IMG/VR virus record: IMGVR_UViG_3300018476_000007
Span: 1 to 43,036 of that record
From: a virus
Length of the DNA stretch: 43,036 bases
Strand: one strand, 5' to 3'
The notes beneath the pieces are model-generated. The model saw nothing but the letters and a program-made list of their open reading frames with translations, was not told where the DNA came from and did no database searches. Below, one piece after another: positions 29,975-43,036 of this stretch. The translations under genes and the position numbers were made by a program. Position 1 is the first letter of the stretch; the number at the start of each line of letters is the position of its first letter.

Positions 29975-30242
29975 CTTCGTTAACTCTTGCAGCCTGTGCT
30001 CTTGATTCAGACTCTAGATCTCTAATCCTAGTTCTAAGAGGAGTAATACCACCTATAGGATTTACTTCGCCTACTTTAATATCATTCCTAATCTCTTCAA
30101 AGATTCCGAGTCTCTTCAATAACATTCGGTTAGTCTGACGTTCTTCTCTAATCAGATCATGCAGTCTTTGTACTTCATCTGATAGAAAAGTATTAATTCT
30201 TTCTAGATGATTAATGACGTCTTGCTGCGTGCCTTCTAACAC
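29958..30242 (-). CDS. Coiled-coil protein (94 aa from GTG 30242; the track gives a 140-aa version reaching 30380)
   Basis: The long version would overlap the terminase by 170 nt. GTG 30242 is preceded by AAGGAAAGGAAA and overlaps the terminase by only 32 nt. Confidence 0.5.
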   Translation of the reverse strand: MLEGTQQDVINHLERINTFLSDEVQRLHDLIREERQTNRMLLKRLGIFEEIRNDIKVGEVNPIGGITPLRTRIRDLESESRAQAARVNEDATEE

Positions 30243-31890
30243 CGAAGGTTTCCTTTCCTTGCCCTTGTTCAAGAAACTCCATCCGGCGATAGAATCTATT
30301 AGTGTCATGCGTAGTCTCAAATTCTTGAATAATATTCTGAGTCTTCTGTCTTCTAGCAAGTTCCTCGCCGAGCATTCCATTCATATAACGCTGAGCAAAC
30401 TTACAGAGATAACGAAGACAATCAATAGGATCATCTCCATCAAACTCTTTAATATCCTCAGTCTTGTTATCATCATAGATAACACTTGGAATAGTCTCTA
30501 CCAATAAAGGGGCGATCGTTTCTAACGTACTACTAGGTGAGGACAATATTTGGAGCTTAGGAATATTAGTTTCCTCAGCATACTCTCTAAAAGTATTCAT
30601 ATACTTCTGTAAAGCTTCCTCACCAAACTTTCGATAGATCATCTCTGCTTTACTATGATCGTATAATTCAGTAGGATCTTGTCTGGGTTTTTGTTCCCAC
30701 CTAAGGAAATCTTGTAGGACTTGTAATGTTGCAACTCTAGAACCTGCTGTGTTTTCTGATGGGATTGGGGTAAGCTTAGAATATCTTTTAACTTCAGCCG
30801 CAATAGTTCCTTGTCCCCTATCTTGCCATCCAGAGCCGCATAATACGAACTGGACGATATGCTCATACTCACTGATCTGTCCTACTTCAGTTGCCCAGAA
30901 TGCGATATCTTTATTTTTCCACCATCTTTCACGATAAATATATACCCTATTGTCCGGGCTAATGGCCGCCCATAACGCGTAACAAATAGCTCTCTTCCCC
31001 CAATCAAGAATAAGTAATCTGGGCCACCATTCAGGTATCTCAAAATATTTACAGACATGAAGTGCATTGTCTGGCTCATCTGGGAATCTGAATGGTCTAA
31101 ATGTTGTAAATACTGATCCCTCATATGCGTGCCAGTCACCATACTTCTTAGCTCTCTTCTCTGCTTCTGGTAGAATCTCTAGTTTCTGTAAGTAATCCGG
31201 ATCATATTGCATCCCATAAGGATTATCCTGCGGTAAGCAGGGAATATACATTCTTCGTAGTCCGGTGACTTTATCTCTGATAAGTTTATAACCAGATTCA
31301 CAAGGTCGCACGAATCTGTTGTAAGTAAATGTTTGACCAATTCCTCCTGGATTGCTTCCATTCCTAACGATTGCAACGTTGAAAGTACTCGATGGTCTAA
31401 CACGAGAGCCAACGAAATATCTATACATTGGTTCTTCAAAGTGTGTCAACTCATCGAAAGCACAGTAATTATACTGGGCGGTATCGTAAGCTTTAACGTC
31501 CTTAAGATGTTGGATGTGACTAAAGTCAAAATAACTTCCATACTCTTTCCATTCCCATGAGTGCTTGTTCTCATTGTATCGCGCTCCGGTTAAAGGAAAG
31601 TATTCCTTAGATAATCTAATAACTTCCTTCTCTAGATCCGTTAACTCTCTTCTTAGCAGGATTCCTTTAAAACCTCGGTACTTATAAAATCCTCTTAACA
31701 AGGGAAGTAACGTTAAGATAAATGATTTTCCTCCATAAGCCGCTCCTCCATAAAGACCTTCGTAAACTGTATCAGGCATTTCTAGAAAATCTTTCTGCCT
31801 GAGATGGGGTTCAATCTTTCTTATAAGATCCTCTGCGGGATCTCGGAATTGTACTATAGGGAACTCTGATATAAGAGGATTGACGCTCAC
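30211..31890 (-). CDS. terL: Terminase large subunit
   Basis: Walker A YGGAAYGGKS, Walker B CAFDELTHF, and a C-terminal nuclease-type region (LILDWGK...). Size 559 aa. Confidence 0.85.
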   Translation of the reverse strand: MSVNPLISEFPIVQFRDPAEDLIRKIEPHLRQKDFLEMPDTVYEGLYGGAAYGGKSFILTLLPLLRGFYKYRGFKGILLRRELTDLEKEVIRLSKEYFPLTGARYNENKHSWEWKEYGSYFDFSHIQHLKDVKAYDTAQYNYCAFDELTHFEEPMYRYFVGSRVRPSSTFNVAIVRNGSNPGGIGQTFTYNRFVRPCESGYKLIRDKVTGLRRMYIPCLPQDNPYGMQYDPDYLQKLEILPEAEKRAKKYGDWHAYEGSVFTTFRPFRFPDEPDNALHVCKYFEIPEWWPRLLILDWGKRAICYALWAAISPDNRVYIYRERWWKNKDIAFWATEVGQISEYEHIVQFVLCGSGWQDRGQGTIAAEVKRYSKLTPIPSENTAGSRVATLQVLQDFLRWEQKPRQDPTELYDHSKAEMIYRKFGEEALQKYMNTFREYAEETNIPKLQILSSPSSTLETIAPLLVETIPSVIYDDNKTEDIKEFDGDDPIDCLRYLCKFAQRYMNGMLGEELARRQKTQNIIQEFETTHDTNRFYRRMEFLEQGQGKETFGVRRHAARRH

Positions 31891-32867: not shown

Positions 32868-33022
32868 AGTAGTTTTTAAGGACTAGAATCAGTTCCCTAT
32901 AATAAGATCTTCTAAGTAGAAAATCAAATTGTTCACACGTTAATTGACCAAAGAACTCGCCCACTTCTCTAACACTATAATATTAATCTTCCACCCTTAA
33001 GACCTACACCTCGACTAAAGAA

Positions 33023-33051
33023 AGTATAACACAGTCCGAACCGTTTGTCAA
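33023..33051 (-). promoter_or_regulatory. sigma70-type promoter facing the - arm (TTGACA-N17-TATACT with an extended TGT)
   Basis: The reverse complement of 33021-33055 reads ccggTTGACAaacggttcggactgtgtTATACTtt. It lies about 150 nt upstream of the ATG at 32867. Confidence 0.6.
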
Positions 33052-33118
33052 CCGGCCCAAATTTCGACCAATTCGATGCACTCAGTTCTCTAATTTTTAA
33101 AATTCCCTAAATTTTTTT

Positions 33119-33153
33119 ATTAGGTACTTATCCTAAAATCATTAGGTACTTAT
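33119..33153. repeat. 13-bp direct repeat ATTAGGTACTTAT x2 (period 22 bp) next to an A/T tract
   Basis: Copies at 33119-33131 and 33141-33153. Preceded by taatttttaaaattccctaaattttttt. Confidence 0.8.
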
Positions 33154-33191
33154 ATTTTTAGGACACTTAAGCTTGGGGTTAGTTTCACCTC

Positions 33192-33207
33192 CGCAAATAT
33201 TGTGCCA
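33192..33207 (-). promoter_or_regulatory. sigma54-type -24/-12 element facing left: TGGCACAATATTTGCG
   Basis: Exact TGGCAC-N5-TTGC with GG-N10-GC spacing on the - strand. Confidence 0.45.
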
Positions 33208-33237
33208 TGTAAAATTTCTGTAAAGGGCATATGGGGG

Positions 33238-33507
33238 TGGCATTATTATTGCATTAGCATGATTCATGCCAGATAATCGTGTAAGTATTATACAGCGCAT
33301 AAATCATGCCATATAAAAACCGTGTAAAAAATACAGGTATGATCCTTGCATTAGCATAGTTCGTGCCATAATATTGGTATGATCTATGCCGTATAAGAAT
33401 ACTGATTAAAGTCTTGGCATGTTCTATGTGGGATTAGATTAGTTGTAAGCTTTACAAGAATTGTAAGAGTTACAAGTAAGATTTACAAATATGCATAATT
33501 CGTGCCA
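33238..33507. repeat. Array of 16-nt TGGCAYGnnnnWTGC motifs in both orientations
   Basis: Minus-strand copies: 33256-33271 TGGCATGAATCATGCT; 33296-33311 TGGCATGATTTATGCG; 33353-33368 TGGCACGAACTATGCT; 33492-33507 TGGCACGAATTATGCA. Plus-strand copies: 33238-33253 TGGCATTATTATTGCA; 33335-33350 AGGTATGATCCTTGCA; 33375-33390 TGGTATGATCTATGCC; 33415-33430 TGGCATGTTCTATGTG. Further copies lie at 33624-33639 and 34483-34498. Confidence 0.85.
33443..33476. repeat. Two tandem 16-bp near-palindromes TTGTAAGnnTTACAAG (period 18 bp); operator-like
   Basis: ttgtaagctttacaag at 33443-33458 and ttgtaagagttacaag at 33461-33476. TTGTAA and TTACAA are reverse complements of each other. Confidence 0.75.
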
Positions 33508-33689
33508 TATCATATTCTTAGATTGTTAGACTTTCTTCTAGTATTCTCAGTATTCTTAGAAGGATCATAGTAGGGCATATAACCTAACTCCTTTAGAATC
33601 AACAACTTACGAGATTTATAAGTTGGCATATAGTATGTATTAGTATAGGATTGCGTAGCTTACCTGCTACCAGGGAGCCAAACCTAATT

Positions 33690-33705
33690 TGGCACGGCGG
33701 TTGCT
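33690..33705 (+). promoter_or_regulatory. Canonical sigma54-type -24/-12 element facing right: TGGCACGGCGGTTGCT
   Basis: Matches TGGCACG-N4-TTGCW exactly. The predicted start is near 33716, at the 5' edge of the hairpin-dense segment. Confidence 0.5.
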
Positions 33706-33715
33706 ATAGTATAGG

Positions 33716-34280
33716 CTACGGGAGGAATGAAACGATAGAGTAAAAACTACACGATTCGAGGTCACGTTTAATGAGTGTATGACCTTGTATCCACAGCGTT
33801 TCGGCGCAGGCCACGATTTACTCGTGTGTTAGTGAGATACTAAATAGACTCTGGCGTTCAACATCCGCGCATATGATTATGCGACAGGTTGCGAGGTAGA
33901 TAATTCTACAGAATCTCAAAGCCGTGCAAAATCTGAAAATGCTTTCGAGCATAATGGTAAGCGGATGATATCAATAGGATGGTTCTTACAAAATCATCCG
34001 AGTGCCAAGGGGGAGTTAGTCTCCCATCCTATACATGCACGGCGATGCAGAAACAGTATGCAAGATAACACTGCTATAGCTGATAAGGAATTAGGGTGGA
34101 AGTAGTGATTAGGCGAAAGCTTATAACTCTCAATACACTATAAATACAAAAGATTTGACAGAGCCTAAATTGTGCGGGCAAGAGTGAGCGCATTAGGTTC
34201 TATCAAATATCATTCTAATCGAATTATGCTTCTCACCATTGAGAGGGATATTCGATAAGGGCTAAGCGATTAATTTCCTT
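33716..34280 (+). ncRNA. Candidate large structured RNA or structured leader (unclassified)
   Basis: No ORF of 60 aa or more. Hairpins whose loops are special only on the + strand: AUGCU-UUCG-AGCAU at 33939-33952 and UAGGC-GAAA-GCUUA at 34110-34123. Other hairpins: CGCAUA-UGAU-UAUGCG at 33868-33883; GUAGA/UCUAC at 33896-33909; GGGAG/CUCCC at 34011-34025. An 8-bp stem pairs 33962-33969 with 33993-34000. Its loop UAGGAUGG (33975-33982) is complementary to CCAUCCUA (34024-34031). Boundaries are approximate. Confidence 0.35.
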
Positions 34281-34296
34281 ATAAGGAGTTAATCCC

Positions 34297-34479
34297 ATGA
34301 AAGAATACAGAGTTAACATTGAGTTCGATACGATGAATGATAATGCTGCACTTCGTTCTATGATGTTGATTGTAAACGCAACATCAGTGCCGCATGCGAC
34401 AATCTGCGCTGAAAGACTTGTTAGAAGTATTCTCACTGTTTGGCCTGAGATTAAGTATCTCAGTGCTTCTCAGCGTTAA
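34297..34479 (+). CDS. First ORF of the + arm (60 aa)
   Basis: AAGGAG SD 9 nt upstream. No motif recognised. Confidence 0.6.
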   Translation: MKEYRVNIEFDTMNDNAALRSMMLIVNATSVPHATICAERLVRSILTVWPEIKYLSASQR

Positions 34480-34559
34480 TATTGGCATAGGCGTTGAGTT
34501 TGACCTCATTCCCCCGTCACTGACCAACCAAAAAATCGCTAGCCTTTGTCGAATATCCC

Positions 34560-34588
34560 TTGACATGGGGTATTCATTGTGATACAAT
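34560..34588 (+). promoter_or_regulatory. Consensus sigma70 promoter TTGACA-N17-TACAAT with an extended -10 (TGA)
   Basis: ccctTTGACAtggggtattcattgtgaTACAATc, about 60 nt upstream of the ATG at 34650. Confidence 0.7.
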
Positions 34589-34649: not shown

Positions 34650-35237
34650 ATGACGACTAAGATGCGACGTTTGGTTGACAAGCAGTTGGCGGTTGAGGAA
34701 ACTTCGGGCGATGCGAACTTTGTAAAGGATACGCCTTTCGGTTCGATTCGTCGTGGCACCTTCTCTATTACCGTATCGGACGAGAATAAGAAGGAACTTT
34801 ACAGCAATAAGGCTGAAGCTTATGAGTTTGATGTTGTAAACTCTTTGGCTAATGTCCTTCGGCATGCTGGCGCTAAGTTGCCGGATGCTGCAATTGGTGG
34901 ATTGGGTAAAGTTCTTACCGCTGACAATCCTGCCGACCAGACTACGATTAATGAGGCAACTCAGGAAATCGTTAAGACTTATAATAACAAGCTGAAGGCT
35001 GACGCTAAGTCGTCTGCTTATCAGGCTCTTGTTAATAAGTATAAGCCTCTTGAGGGTGAGAAGAAGGAATCGGCACAGGCTCGACTTGTTGCTAATTTCA
35101 TCAAGCTTGCTGGTGTTAGCAAGGAGACTGCTATTACTCAGCTTAAGGCTGCAATGGCTCTTCCTGCGGAGTATACGGTTGCTGATTTTGATAGCACACC
35201 GCTCCGTCGGACTAAGGGGGATGATAGCGAGGAATAA
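34650..35237 (+). CDS. Early protein (195 aa), unknown function, atypical codon usage
   Basis: GAGGGA SD. Ala/Lys-rich with an acidic tail (GDDSEE). It uses CGN Arg, GCT Ala and CTT Leu codons, unlike the AGA/AGG/ATA-rich remainder of the genome. The antisense 220-aa ORF is Leu/Ser/Arg-rich and is judged spurious. Confidence 0.75.
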   Translation: MTTKMRRLVDKQLAVEETSGDANFVKDTPFGSIRRGTFSITVSDENKKELYSNKAEAYEFDVVNSLANVLRHAGAKLPDAAIGGLGKVLTADNPADQTTINEATQEIVKTYNNKLKADAKSSAYQALVNKYKPLEGEKKESAQARLVANFIKLAGVSKETAITQLKAAMALPAEYTVADFDSTPLRRTKGDDSEE

Positions 35238-35296
35238 TATTCTAAGGATTATCAACTGGTATAGGCCAGTATAAACAGGTCTTAAGCCTATAGCGT

Positions 35297-35339
35297 TTAG
35301 TTGGCTGGCTAGTTCGTATGTAATTAGTCAGTCAACTAA
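35297..35339 (+). other. Long intergenic RNA hairpin (11 bp + 6 bp, three G.U pairs valid only on the + strand)
   Basis: UUAGUUGGCUG-g-CUAGUU-cguaugu-AAUUAG-u-CAGUCAACUAA. It ends 46 nt before the ATG at 35386. Confidence 0.5.
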
Positions 35340-35902: not shown

Positions 35903-36063
35903 TAATCAAATTCAAGCAATGCAAGGGGTGTAGGAAACAAGCAGCGCCATTGAGTAAGAAGTTTAATGGAGTCCTCCTTTGCTTTTCCTGTATTAGCAAG
36001 CTGAAGAAAATCACTGAGCAACTTTGCGAATTGCAGGAGAATAATGCAACTAAAGCATCTTAA
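35899..36063 (+). CDS. Small zinc-ribbon protein (54 aa), below the track cutoff
   Basis: The GTG overlaps the previous TGA (GTGA). Product IIKFKQCKGCRK...LLCFSCISK has two CxxC pairs. Confidence 0.5.
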   Translation: MIIKFKQCKGCRKQAAPLSKKFNGVLLCFSCISKLKKITEQLCELQENNATKAS

Positions 36064-36117
36064 GTAGTCTAAGCTTAAGATTCGACTTGATAAGAGGTAG
36101 AGAATCAGTCTTGATTC

Positions 36118-36170
36118 GGTCGAAAGACAGTCGAGAAACGGTCGAGAAATGGTTGAGCTTTGGTCGAATG
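36118..36170. repeat. Five tandem iterons, unit GGTCGAGAAAn, period exactly 11 bp
   Basis: GTCGA occurs at 36119, 36130, 36141 and 36163, with GTTGA at 36152. An inverted copy TCGAC lies at 36082-36086. The palindrome GAATCAgtctTGATTC lies at 36102-36117. Confidence 0.8.
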
Positions 36171-36212
36171 GAATCAGGGTTAACTCATTCAATCAAAAGC
36201 AGTTAAAGGAAA

Positions 36213-36426
36213 CCCCCTCCCTCTCCCCTAGCATACCCTCCCATACCCTCTAGTGTCCCCTATAGTGGTCACGGTGCTGTTGTTCTTATATTAGTAATAA
36301 TAAAAAATACTAAGAAGAATAACACTCTACCACAAGGAGTGTCCTCTAAAGGATACACTTGACAGGCTCCATAGGGGTGTGATACACTCCAAGGGGGAGA
36401 GGGGGAGGGGTATGCTAGAGGTATCG
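36213..36426. repeat. Imperfect inverted repeat with a C-run left arm and a G-run right arm, enclosing an AT-rich core and a promoter
   Basis: The left arm ccccctccctctcccctagcataccctcccataccctctag (36213-36253) is partly complementary to the right arm gggggagagggggaggggtatgctagaggtat (36393-36424). For example, ctagcataccctccc pairs with gggaggggtatgctag. An inner pair is cccctatagtgg with ccatagggg. The core 36281-36325 is A/T-rich. Confidence 0.65.
36359..36388 (+). promoter_or_regulatory. sigma70-type promoter TTGACA-N18-TACACT (extended TGA)
   Basis: cacTTGACAggctccataggggtgtgaTACACTcc. The octamer GATACACT occurs twice (36352-36359 and 36381-36388), flanking the -35 and overlapping the -10. 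Confidence 0.55.
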
Positions 36427-42773: not shown

Positions 42774-43036
42774 ATGCCTAGAATTGACGTTATCACGGGG
42801 GAGCTTATCCGGGATGAAGTTCCAATCGAAAGTATTAGACTTCCGGAAGTTACGACAGACGTTGTTTCTAAAGAAGCTATGGAACCCGTCCAAGAAACAA
42901 CAGGAGTTTCTGAAACAATCTCAAGCGGAGTTACTAAGGAAATCACAAGAGACAAATGGACAAACATCCAAGTAGATAGTCAAGTACTATCCTTGTTCAT
43001 GGCTTGTCCTCGGAAGTATGAGTATGTAATGAAGAG
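42774..43036 (+). CDS. N-terminal part of the Cas4/RecB-like exonuclease (continues at base 124 of the window after the wrap)
   Basis: The ATG at 42774 opens a frame (MPRIDVITGELIRDEVPIE...SLFMACPRKYEYVMK) that runs off the window end without a stop. It is in phase with 80..901 once the 42,913-bp offset is applied. Confidence 0.75.
   Translation, partial: MPRIDVITGELIRDEVPIESIRLPEVTTDVVSKEAMEPVQETTGVSETISSGVTKEITRDKWTNIQVDSQVLSLFMACPRKYEYVMK
42914..43036. repeat. Terminal duplication, right copy (identical to 1-123)
   Basis: Direct comparison of the two window ends. Confidence 0.9.

Follow-up and report, generated by a model that had tools for sequence, protein, structure and literature searches.

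The window analysed here is a stretch of viral DNA of 43,036 nucleotides (nt; IMG/VR record IMGVR_UViG_3300018476_000007), and the element under study is a segment of about 425 nt at positions 33726–34150, referred to below as module A. The segment is non-coding and its secondary structure is conserved through compensatory changes between the window and the one homologue that was found. The + strand is favoured as the strand that forms the structure, and the RNA belongs to no catalogued family. In these respects, as in the sigma54-type promoter motif that precedes the segment and the read-through into the genes that follow it, the analysis supports an earlier note, made from the letters of the window alone, which had proposed a large structured RNA at this place. 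The RNA was put at about 600 nt in that note; the conserved unit is the shorter 33726–34150, and the remainder to 34296 consists of separate hairpins and cassette-closing helices. Our tentative reading is that the element is an RNA that is released from the early transcript of the phage and acts in trans. Promoter use, processing, action in trans and a biological role are what we infer from the comparisons described below.

Absence of coding signal

The homologue lies on a forest-soil contig (L166; ENA ERZ1761150) that was reached via contigs anchored on the 195-amino-acid protein encoded downstream of the segment. Positions 33726–34192 of the window align with L166 521–1000 (nhmmer, E = 9.5e-38, approximately 66–72% identity). 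Substitutions between the two sequences fall almost equally on the three codon positions (44/51/44, chi-square p = 0.70), so there is no three-nucleotide periodicity, and the indels within the module are 1, 5 and 7 nt long. The neighbouring genes, used as controls, display strong codon periodicity (p = 9e-11 and 3e-8), and their gaps are all multiples of three. The segment 33726–34150 is non-coding, as the earlier note had claimed.

Within 32887–34232 the longest open reading frame (ORF) on either strand has 52 amino acids, in line with the previous statement that this stretch has no ORF of 60 amino acids or more. One + frame of the window contains a stop-free run of 85 codons, which is not kept in L166 (10–14 stops in the + frames). 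A three-codon mini-ORF lies at the exact start of the homology in both sequences, behind a purine-rich stretch (GGAGGA/AAGGA); it reads AUG AAA CGA UAG in the window (33726–33737) and AUG AGU GAG UAG in L166 (521–532). Its translation is doubtful because no more than about 1 nt separates the purine stretch from the AUG. The G+C content is 0.42–0.455 across 33600–34200 compared with 0.31–0.36 across 33100–33600, which matches the description of a segment richer in G+C than the A/T-rich spacer to its left. G exceeds C throughout 33600–34200 (GC skew of +0.08 to +0.21).

Conservation of the secondary structure

The pairwise alignment of the window with L166 (alignment A3) was folded with RNAalifold and compared with column shuffles that keep the gap and conservation patterns. 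The consensus fold has 90 pairs, 18 of which are compensatory, against 9.0–9.6 in the shuffles (standard deviation 2.7–2.9; maximum of 17 in 150). The consensus energy of the + strand is −75.3 kcal/mol, compared with −35 ± 5 kcal/mol in the shuffles (z = −7.6 to −8.2), and the structure conservation index is 0.59 compared with 0.31 ± 0.04. Three coding alignments of the same phage pair (the 195-amino-acid gene, a 166-amino-acid gene and the terminase) had z values between −1.0 and +0.6, and their compensatory pairs were no more numerous than in their shuffles. Judged against both the shuffles and the coding controls, the secondary structure of 33726–34150 is conserved through compensatory changes in these two sequences, and the proposal of a structured RNA is upheld.

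The same alignment favours the + strand, to which the element had been assigned. The + strand structure is lower in consensus energy and contains 23 G.U cells and 12 one-sided, wobble-mediated changes, compared with 15 and five for the − strand structure. Long identical blocks of 15–22 nt persist despite the overall identity of 66%; the loop of hairpin P2 (listed below), ACUAAAUAGACUCUGGCGUUC and the 3′ tail are among them. The module evolves faster than the neighbouring genes, which are 73–78% identical between the window and L166.

For 33700–34296, folding of the single sequence with RNAfold gave z values of −5.8 (+ strand) and −4.7 (− strand). The core alone (33716–34150) gave −3.5 and −3.4, compared with −2.3 to −3.6 for coding controls from the same genome. 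The excess over shuffled sequence, for which the earlier note had proposed a test, is thus clear for the whole of 33700–34296, but in the core it does not go beyond that of coding DNA; the value of the longer segment is raised by the hairpins at 34150–34296. For the core, the excess over chance comes from the comparison with the single homologue and not from single-sequence energy.

Architecture of module A

The elements of the consensus fold are as follows.

33726–34150, + strand: module A, structured core of about 425 nt, in which a 5′ hairpin is followed by the central multi-branch domain, the 3′ domain and a conserved tail
33757–33764 with 33780–33787, + strand: hairpin P2, with a stem of 8 base pairs (bp) and a 15-nt loop, CGUUUAAUGAGUGUA, identical in both sequences
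33849–34010, + strand: central multi-branch domain, closed by helix 33849–33859 with 34000–34010
33862–33868 with 33961–33967, + strand: central-domain helix, two compensatory pairs
33870–33872 with 33954–33956, + strand: central-domain helix, two compensatory pairs
33880–33889 with 33921–33928, + strand: central-domain helix predicted by RNAalifold
33939–33952, + strand: UUCG hairpin of the central domain, one compensatory pair
33977–33984 with 33992–33999, + strand: central-domain hairpin, three compensatory pairs
34011–34131, + strand: 3′ domain, closed by an 8-bp helix (34011–34018 with 34124–34131) with three compensatory pairs

The hairpin at 33757–33787 has two compensatory pairs, one changing from U-A to C-G and the other from C-G to U-A. 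The interior of the 3′ domain is variable and poorly conserved, and holds the GAAA hairpin at 34110–34123. The module ends in the conserved tail CAAUACA-N-UAUAAAUAC.

The hairpins that had been read from the sequence by the earlier note are all present at the coordinates that it gave.

33939–33952, + strand: UUCG hairpin (stem ATGCT/AGCAT, loop TTCG)
34110–34123, + strand: GAAA hairpin (stem TAGGC/GCTTA)
33868–33883, + strand: stem CGCATA/TATGCG
33758–33786, + strand: stem GAGGTCA/TGACCTT
33749–33754 with 33822–33827, + strand: stem ACACGA/TCGTGT
34011–34025, + strand: stem GGGAG/CTCCC
33962–33969 with 33993–34000, + strand: 8-bp stem CGGATGAT/ATCATCCG
33975–33982, + strand: loop TAGGATGG, complementary to CCATCCTA at 34024–34031

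Several of these do not survive the comparison with L166. The 8-bp stem at 33962–33969/33993–34000 is not kept, and its 5′ strand pairs with 33862–33868 instead; nor is the pseudoknot between 33975–33982 and 34024–34031. Both are absent from the fold of the homologue and were rejected as conserved features. The CGCAUA hairpin and the ACACGA/UCGUGU enclosure are likewise not kept, and the GGGAG/CUCCC hairpin is replaced by the long-range helix 34011–34018 with 34124–34131.

Comparison with known families and search for further copies

A search of 32868–34296 against Rfam 15, which the earlier note had proposed, gave no match at gathering score to any family, including GOLLD, ROOL, OLE, raiA, HEARO, 6S, RNase P, transfer-messenger RNA (tmRNA), group I and II introns, phi29 pRNA, riboswitches and ribozymes. 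At E ≤ 10 there were five chance-level matches of 16.6–23.6 bits, to small-RNA, small nucleolar RNA and microRNA models with gathering scores of 42–70. The counterpart regions of the relatives gave no Rfam match either, and ARAGORN predicted no transfer RNA (tRNA) or tmRNA gene in the whole window. These results agree with the failure to recognize RNase P, tmRNA, 6S, tRNA or intron signatures by eye, and exclude a tRNA, a tmRNA or a known ribozyme as the identity of the segment.

Further copies were sought by several routes. A terminase profile run against IMG/VR and JGI metagenomes led to 160 retrieved loci, none of which carries this RNA, and searches of IMG/VR with single flanking proteins found nothing. 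Exact-motif scans of viral contigs with TAAATAGACTCTGGCG and CTGAAANTGCTTTCGNGCANAA had no match, and a scan with ACGTTTAATGAGTGTAT had two, both due to chance. A 16-mer scan of genome contigs listed 76 matches, none of them similar beyond the motif. A covariance model of the central domain recovered only the window and L166 from 0.93 Mb of related loci, with no distant members, and the contigs reached via P0002, P0004, P0005 and P0123 either end before the region or differ in layout.

The phage and its clade

The window is a complete phage genome of approximately 42.9 kb in circular assembly and derives from the public sequencing run SRR6958482 (Logan). Identical direct repeats of 123 nt at 1–123 and 42914–43036 are the assembly overlap of a circular or terminally redundant genome and not an internal biological repeat. 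The structural genes run leftward from 32867 and include the large terminase (30211–31890) and an SU10-like adaptor, and the early and replication genes, which start at 34297 and run rightward, encode among others an SNF2 helicase, a PD-(D/E)XK nuclease, a primase and a family A DNA polymerase. Neither blastn nor megablast, with the region or with 23 kb, found a DNA match among GenBank phages, and a tblastn search of the same phages with the terminase reached at most 28% identity, which indicates that there is no cultured relative. The clade is frequent in soil metagenomes (893 terminase homologues). Among the relatives named below, L165 comes from the sample of a relative with a 97% identical terminase, and the terminases of L082 and L002 are 92 and 76% identical, respectively.

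Upstream control region

Three sites precede module A.

33593–33605, + strand: integration host factor (IHF) consensus site (AATCAACAACTTA = WATCAANNNNTTR), a match to the consensus
33624–33638, + strand: sigma54-type −24/−12 motif P1, TGGCATATAGTATGT, aligning with the L166 motif TGGCAGGCGGTATGT
33690–33704, + strand: sigma54-type motif P2, TGGCACGGCGGTTGC, a full match to YTGGCACG-N4-TTGCW

A sigma54-type promoter was defined by GG at −24, GC at −12 and fixed spacing (TGGCAC-N5-TTGC), all of which are found in the P2 motif. The earlier note had let the segment begin at the predicted start of a canonical sigma54-type element (about 33716); if the P2 motif is used as a promoter, the transcript would probably start near 33716. 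The IHF-consensus site lies about 20 nt upstream of the first + strand motif, and the 26-nt block around it is kept in L166 and inverted in L002 and L167. The looser pattern TGGYAY-N5-WTGY has 12 matches in the window against 1.1 expected, and ten of the 12 lie within 33193–33704, five on each strand. Several motifs of this array are followed by TAGYATAG, and in L082 and L002 related motifs are followed by (A/C)TAGTAT(A/G)G. Two near-consensus sigma70-type promoters, at 33051–33023 on the − strand and 34560–34588 on the + strand (11 of 12 positions each, both with TG), face outward and frame the whole 1.5-kb control region.

Transcript downstream of the module

The features between module A and the early genes are listed here.

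34155–34205, + strand: long hairpin of about 18 bp (RNAfold), aligning by eye with two L166 arms around a small ORF
34229–34246, + strand: hairpin CUUCUC-N6-GAGAGG, present in the window, L165, L166, L082, L002 and L167
34244–34271, + strand: 5′ arm of a 27-bp long-range helix, pairing with 34534–34560 with one bulge
34268–34294, + strand: hairpin (RNAfold) that would sequester the Shine–Dalgarno sequence AAGGAG (34283–34288)
34297–34479, + strand: p60 (ORF call), 60 amino acids, first gene of the + arm, carried as cargo by the enclosed cassette
34534–34560, + strand: 3′ arm of the 27-bp helix, ending at the −35 box of the sigma70-type promoter
34560–34588, + strand: sigma70-type promoter (TTGACA-17-TACAAT, 11 of 12, with TG), kept in L165 and L082 and preceding the 195-amino-acid gene at 34650
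35255–35306, + strand: Pistol self-cleaving ribozyme (Rfam RF02679, 41.3 bits, gathering score 34.5), the sole Rfam match in the window

The 27-bp helix encloses the p60 gene. Over the six phages in which it could be aligned, compensatory change is seen at 13 of the 21 aligned pairs, and pairing holds in 98.4% of cells; the wobble cells comprise nine G.U on the + strand and no A.C. A DNA palindrome would show both kinds, so G.U without A.C points to a + strand RNA, and the covariation implies that an RNA starting upstream runs through p60 to at least position 34560. Read-through into p60, which the earlier note had described as a run without obvious terminator into the first gene of the + arm, is thus evident from the pattern of base changes, and the Shine–Dalgarno sequence that it had named is found at 34283–34288, ahead of the ATG at 34297. 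The stem of the hairpin at 34229–34246 is invariant and therefore gives no covariation evidence. The hairpin at 34155–34205 looks like an empty cassette closure. The 5′ strand of the Shine–Dalgarno hairpin overlaps an arm of the long-range helix, and the two might act as a switch.

Database searches found no homologue of p60 beyond the phage itself; a 63-amino-acid counterpart was read from the sequence of L166. The 195-amino-acid gene (34650–35237, + strand) is the first behind the sigma70-type promoter and is kept across the clade (34 homologues). Neither Pfam nor PHROG contains a match to its product, and the AlphaFold2 model of the protein (predicted local distance difference test score 78; a β-hairpin sheet and a helical bundle) has no fold match in the PDB at E ≤ 0.001. 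The Pistol ribozyme directly follows the stop codon of this gene in the same transcription unit, and syntenic copies are present in L166 (3077–3126, 42.3 bits) and L165 (4159–4213, 39.6 bits).

Cassettes at the same position in relatives

Every syntenic relative has approximately 280–800 nt of non-coding DNA directly after the same promoter, whatever its sequence. In L165, L082 and L002, which have the more similar terminases, the non-coding sequence at this position behind the same promoter type is unrelated to module A; 33726–34150 is therefore an RNA cassette that phages exchange. About 800 nt of other cassettes lie between the module and the p60 homologue in L166. On this sequence evidence the RNA appears to be autonomous and exchangeable, and does not belong as a leader to any single gene. 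The closing helices of the cassettes in relatives are 28–32 bp long, and the other leader types (L082, L165 and L002) have single-sequence folding z values of 0.0 to −1.3. Taken together, the alignments describe the early leader of the clade as a modular, heavily base-paired transcript with parts exchanged between phages.

A second non-coding cassette, of about 270 nt with a 32-bp closing helix, occurs in L082 (2495–2775, − strand), L165 (2612–2892), L166 (1172–1462) and L003 (655–905, − strand). It has conserved blocks (GGUUUACGGAUACG, AGUCUUUAACUUU and AGAUACCGGCAUUGCC), and across the four sequences compensatory change affects 26 of its 60 pairs, G.U cells occur 13 times and A.C cells never in the closing helix, and single-sequence z values are −6 to −8.6. 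The window lacks this cassette, which has no Rfam match and is itself a candidate for a new RNA motif. A further cassette contains a small ORF of 43–65 amino acids (L166 1006–1137, L165 2380–2577, L082 ~2815–2949 on the − strand and L003 ~1025–1165 on the − strand) that share the conserved motif ...RRINKE...F.P.PRLVK. A 28-bp RNA helix surrounds the ORF, and its three mismatches in L166 are all G.U on the + strand. This cassette is not in the window, where the hairpin at 34155–34205 stands instead.

The window has a second stretch without a called gene at 35903–36411, especially 36081–36409, which matches its own opposite strand in nhmmer. In the latter a C-rich arm pairs with a G-rich arm around an A/T-rich centre, and a promoter-like TTGACA...GATACA site is present. 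The stretch is kept in L082, L166, L002, L011 and L167 (RNAfold z = −3.6).

Interpretation

In the reading that we tentatively prefer, 33726–34150 is a + strand non-coding RNA that is released from the early transcript and acts in trans. Transcription would proceed from the tandem sigma54-type promoters (33624 and 33690), starting near 33716, with module A as the first element of a transcript that would continue through the helix-closed cassettes into p60 and the 195-amino-acid gene. A host double-strand-specific RNase (RNase III type) would cut the downstream closing helices of 18–27 bp and the Pistol ribozyme would cut further downstream, and the 5′ module would be released as a discrete, stable, early-expressed RNA. 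This RNA may then act in trans via its perfectly conserved loops as an accessory factor, in host takeover or in counter-defence. The syntenic Pistol ribozyme and the covarying ~270-nt cassette of the relatives provide an RNA-processing setting for this reading, and the identical blocks of 15–22 nt at 66% identity suggest specific interaction surfaces. The 27-bp helix has the length of double-stranded RNA (about 20 bp or more) expected of a transcript of the RNase III type, with the 18-bp hairpin at 34155–34205 nearby.

A number of observations weigh against this reading. Only two copies of the RNA were found, and with two sequences covariation statistics of R-scape grade are impossible. The single-sequence folding energy of the core is unremarkable, and the − strand also has a favourable consensus fold (−60.2 kcal/mol, z = −5.9). 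The module itself lacks a long closing helix, its outermost helix consisting of six A-U-rich pairs, and no terminator is predicted between it and the downstream genes. The conserved loops have no antisense targets within the phage genome. On the side of the promoter, the motifs of several relatives have GT instead of GC at −12, as the P1 motif does, and no sigma54 activator domain was recognized among the phage proteins scanned with Pfam or PHROGs.

The principal alternative, which we consider possible and somewhat less probable, is a structured 5′ leader that stays on the early mRNA and acts in cis, its presence mattering more than its identity; it would protect the message from 5′ decay and Rho-dependent termination, or modify RNA polymerase for read-through. 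The non-coding DNA that all syntenic relatives have after the same promoter fits such a role, as do the missing terminator and the read-through into p60 and beyond. So does the excess of G over C, which is the opposite of Rho utilization sites. A generic spacer, however, needs neither identical blocks of 15–22 nt nor 18 compensatory pairs; the module is not tied to a particular downstream gene, and the other leader types, with a folding excess that is weak or nil, indicate that structure is not a shared property of the position.

It is improbable that the segment lacks a function of its own, being filler with rapid turnover or the remnant of a decayed element within a control region that is hypervariable, with its apparent structure arising from ancestry and the alignment method. 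The closest relatives lack the module entirely, two copies are known, the module is less conserved than the neighbouring genes and by single-sequence z it does not surpass coding DNA, all of which this explanation would accommodate. The same method applied to the three coding alignments nevertheless gave z of about 0, compared with −7.6 and 18 compensatory pairs (9.6 ± 2.7 in shuffles) for the module, in which long identical blocks alternate with covarying stems.

More improbable still is an element acting at the DNA level, for example an origin of replication, a signal for packaging or entry or an array of protein-binding sites, with the repeats forming cruciforms or paired sites. The position in a divergent control region between two sigma70-type promoters, beside an oriented array of ten motifs, and the − strand consensus fold would suit it. 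Against it, the two best-sampled closing helices have 22 G.U and no A.C cells on the + strand, the + strand of the module is lower in energy with more wobble-mediated changes, and the UUCG and GAAA loops are meaningful on the + strand only. A hidden protein-coding gene, as short ORFs or in recoded form, is scarcely credible: the 85-codon stop-free run and the mini-ORF at the same place in both sequences could be taken to favour it, but it was rejected on the lack of periodicity, the 1, 5 and 7 nt indels and the loss of the 85-codon frame in L166, and the purine stretch lies too near the AUG. Each of these last three explanations is at odds with the control tests, the asymmetry of G.U over A.C or the test for periodicity.

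The preferred reading, of an RNA released to act in trans, can be extended to the clade, although we regard the extension as unlikely. The leader would then be an 'RNA accessory island' in which helix-closed cassettes of unrelated large structured RNAs or tiny genes are swapped like anti-defence genes under a sigma54 promoter that depends on host signals, and the 425-nt RNA would belong to a set of several phage RNAs, not known before, that work in trans against host defence or to reprogram the host.

Relation to known systems

Although the RNA is in no catalogued family, it is of a kind already known, that of phage-borne large structured RNAs or structured early leaders. Its setting, with a sigma54-type promoter, an IHF-consensus site, exchangeable helix-closed cassettes and a Pistol ribozyme, is unusual. 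The early transcript of phage T7 is cut by host RNase III into separate RNAs, and RNase III stems flank the ribosomal RNAs (rRNAs). The transcript considered here resembles that of T7 in being polycistronic, early and presumably made by the host polymerase, with segments of double-stranded RNA of at least about 20 bp along its length; in enclosing their cargo, its helices are like those of rRNA operons. In T7 the sites are local intergenic hairpins. Here cleavage at the helices is a prediction, and one putative processing step is a Pistol ribozyme.

GOLLD, ROOL and OLE are large, ornate non-coding RNAs of bacteria or phages with no assigned function, and their cryo-electron microscopy structures have been published (PMC12286853). 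The present RNA is similarly multi-helical, several hundred nucleotides long, phage-borne and non-coding, with conserved junctions and loops. It differs in having no covariance-model match, in its smaller size of about 425 nt, in the absence of adjacent tRNA genes (there are none in the genome), in its occurrence on two soil phage contigs only and in its location at the 5′ end of an early operon and not as a stand-alone gene.

The glmY and glmZ genes encode sigma54-dependent non-coding RNAs and have activator sites and IHF (PMC3045617), and the Pseudomonas phage YuA has sigma54-type promoters (PMC10914365). With glmY and glmZ the segment shares a −24/−12 promoter motif, an upstream IHF-consensus site and an untranslated structured RNA, and YuA provides a precedent for a phage using host sigma54. 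GlmY and GlmZ are approximately 150–200 nt long and have terminators; the RNA described here is about 425 nt long and read through, and its motif array occupies both strands. Non-coding RNA candidates derived from 5′ untranslated regions have been reported in virulent phages by ONT-cappable-seq (PMC10914365). These too are structured RNAs that relatives have kept and that come from the interval separating a phage promoter from the first gene, but they are shorter than 250 nt and arise by premature termination, whereas the present RNA has no terminator, is far larger and is modular.

The put RNA of phage HK022 is a promoter-proximal RNA of about 70 nt with two stem-loops that makes RNA polymerase resistant to termination. 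Module A is likewise a folded RNA placed directly after putative early promoters, from where it could influence the transcribing polymerase in cis, a likeness by description that serves as a lead; at about 425 nt it is much larger than put with its two stem-loops.

Significance

To our knowledge, large structured RNAs without an assigned function are rare, and each new class, such as GOLLD, ROOL and OLE, has opened new biology. The RNA at 33726–34150 comes with a defined genetic setting, as the putative first product of an early transcript behind a sigma54-type promoter motif with an IHF-consensus site. A self-cleaving ribozyme and long cassette-enclosing helices belong to the same unit. If the proposed reading is correct, phages would exchange RNA genes in the way that they exchange accessory protein genes, the early leaders of uncultured phages would be a productive hunting ground for new functional RNAs, and this clade would offer a tractable case of the use of host sigma54 by a lytic phage.

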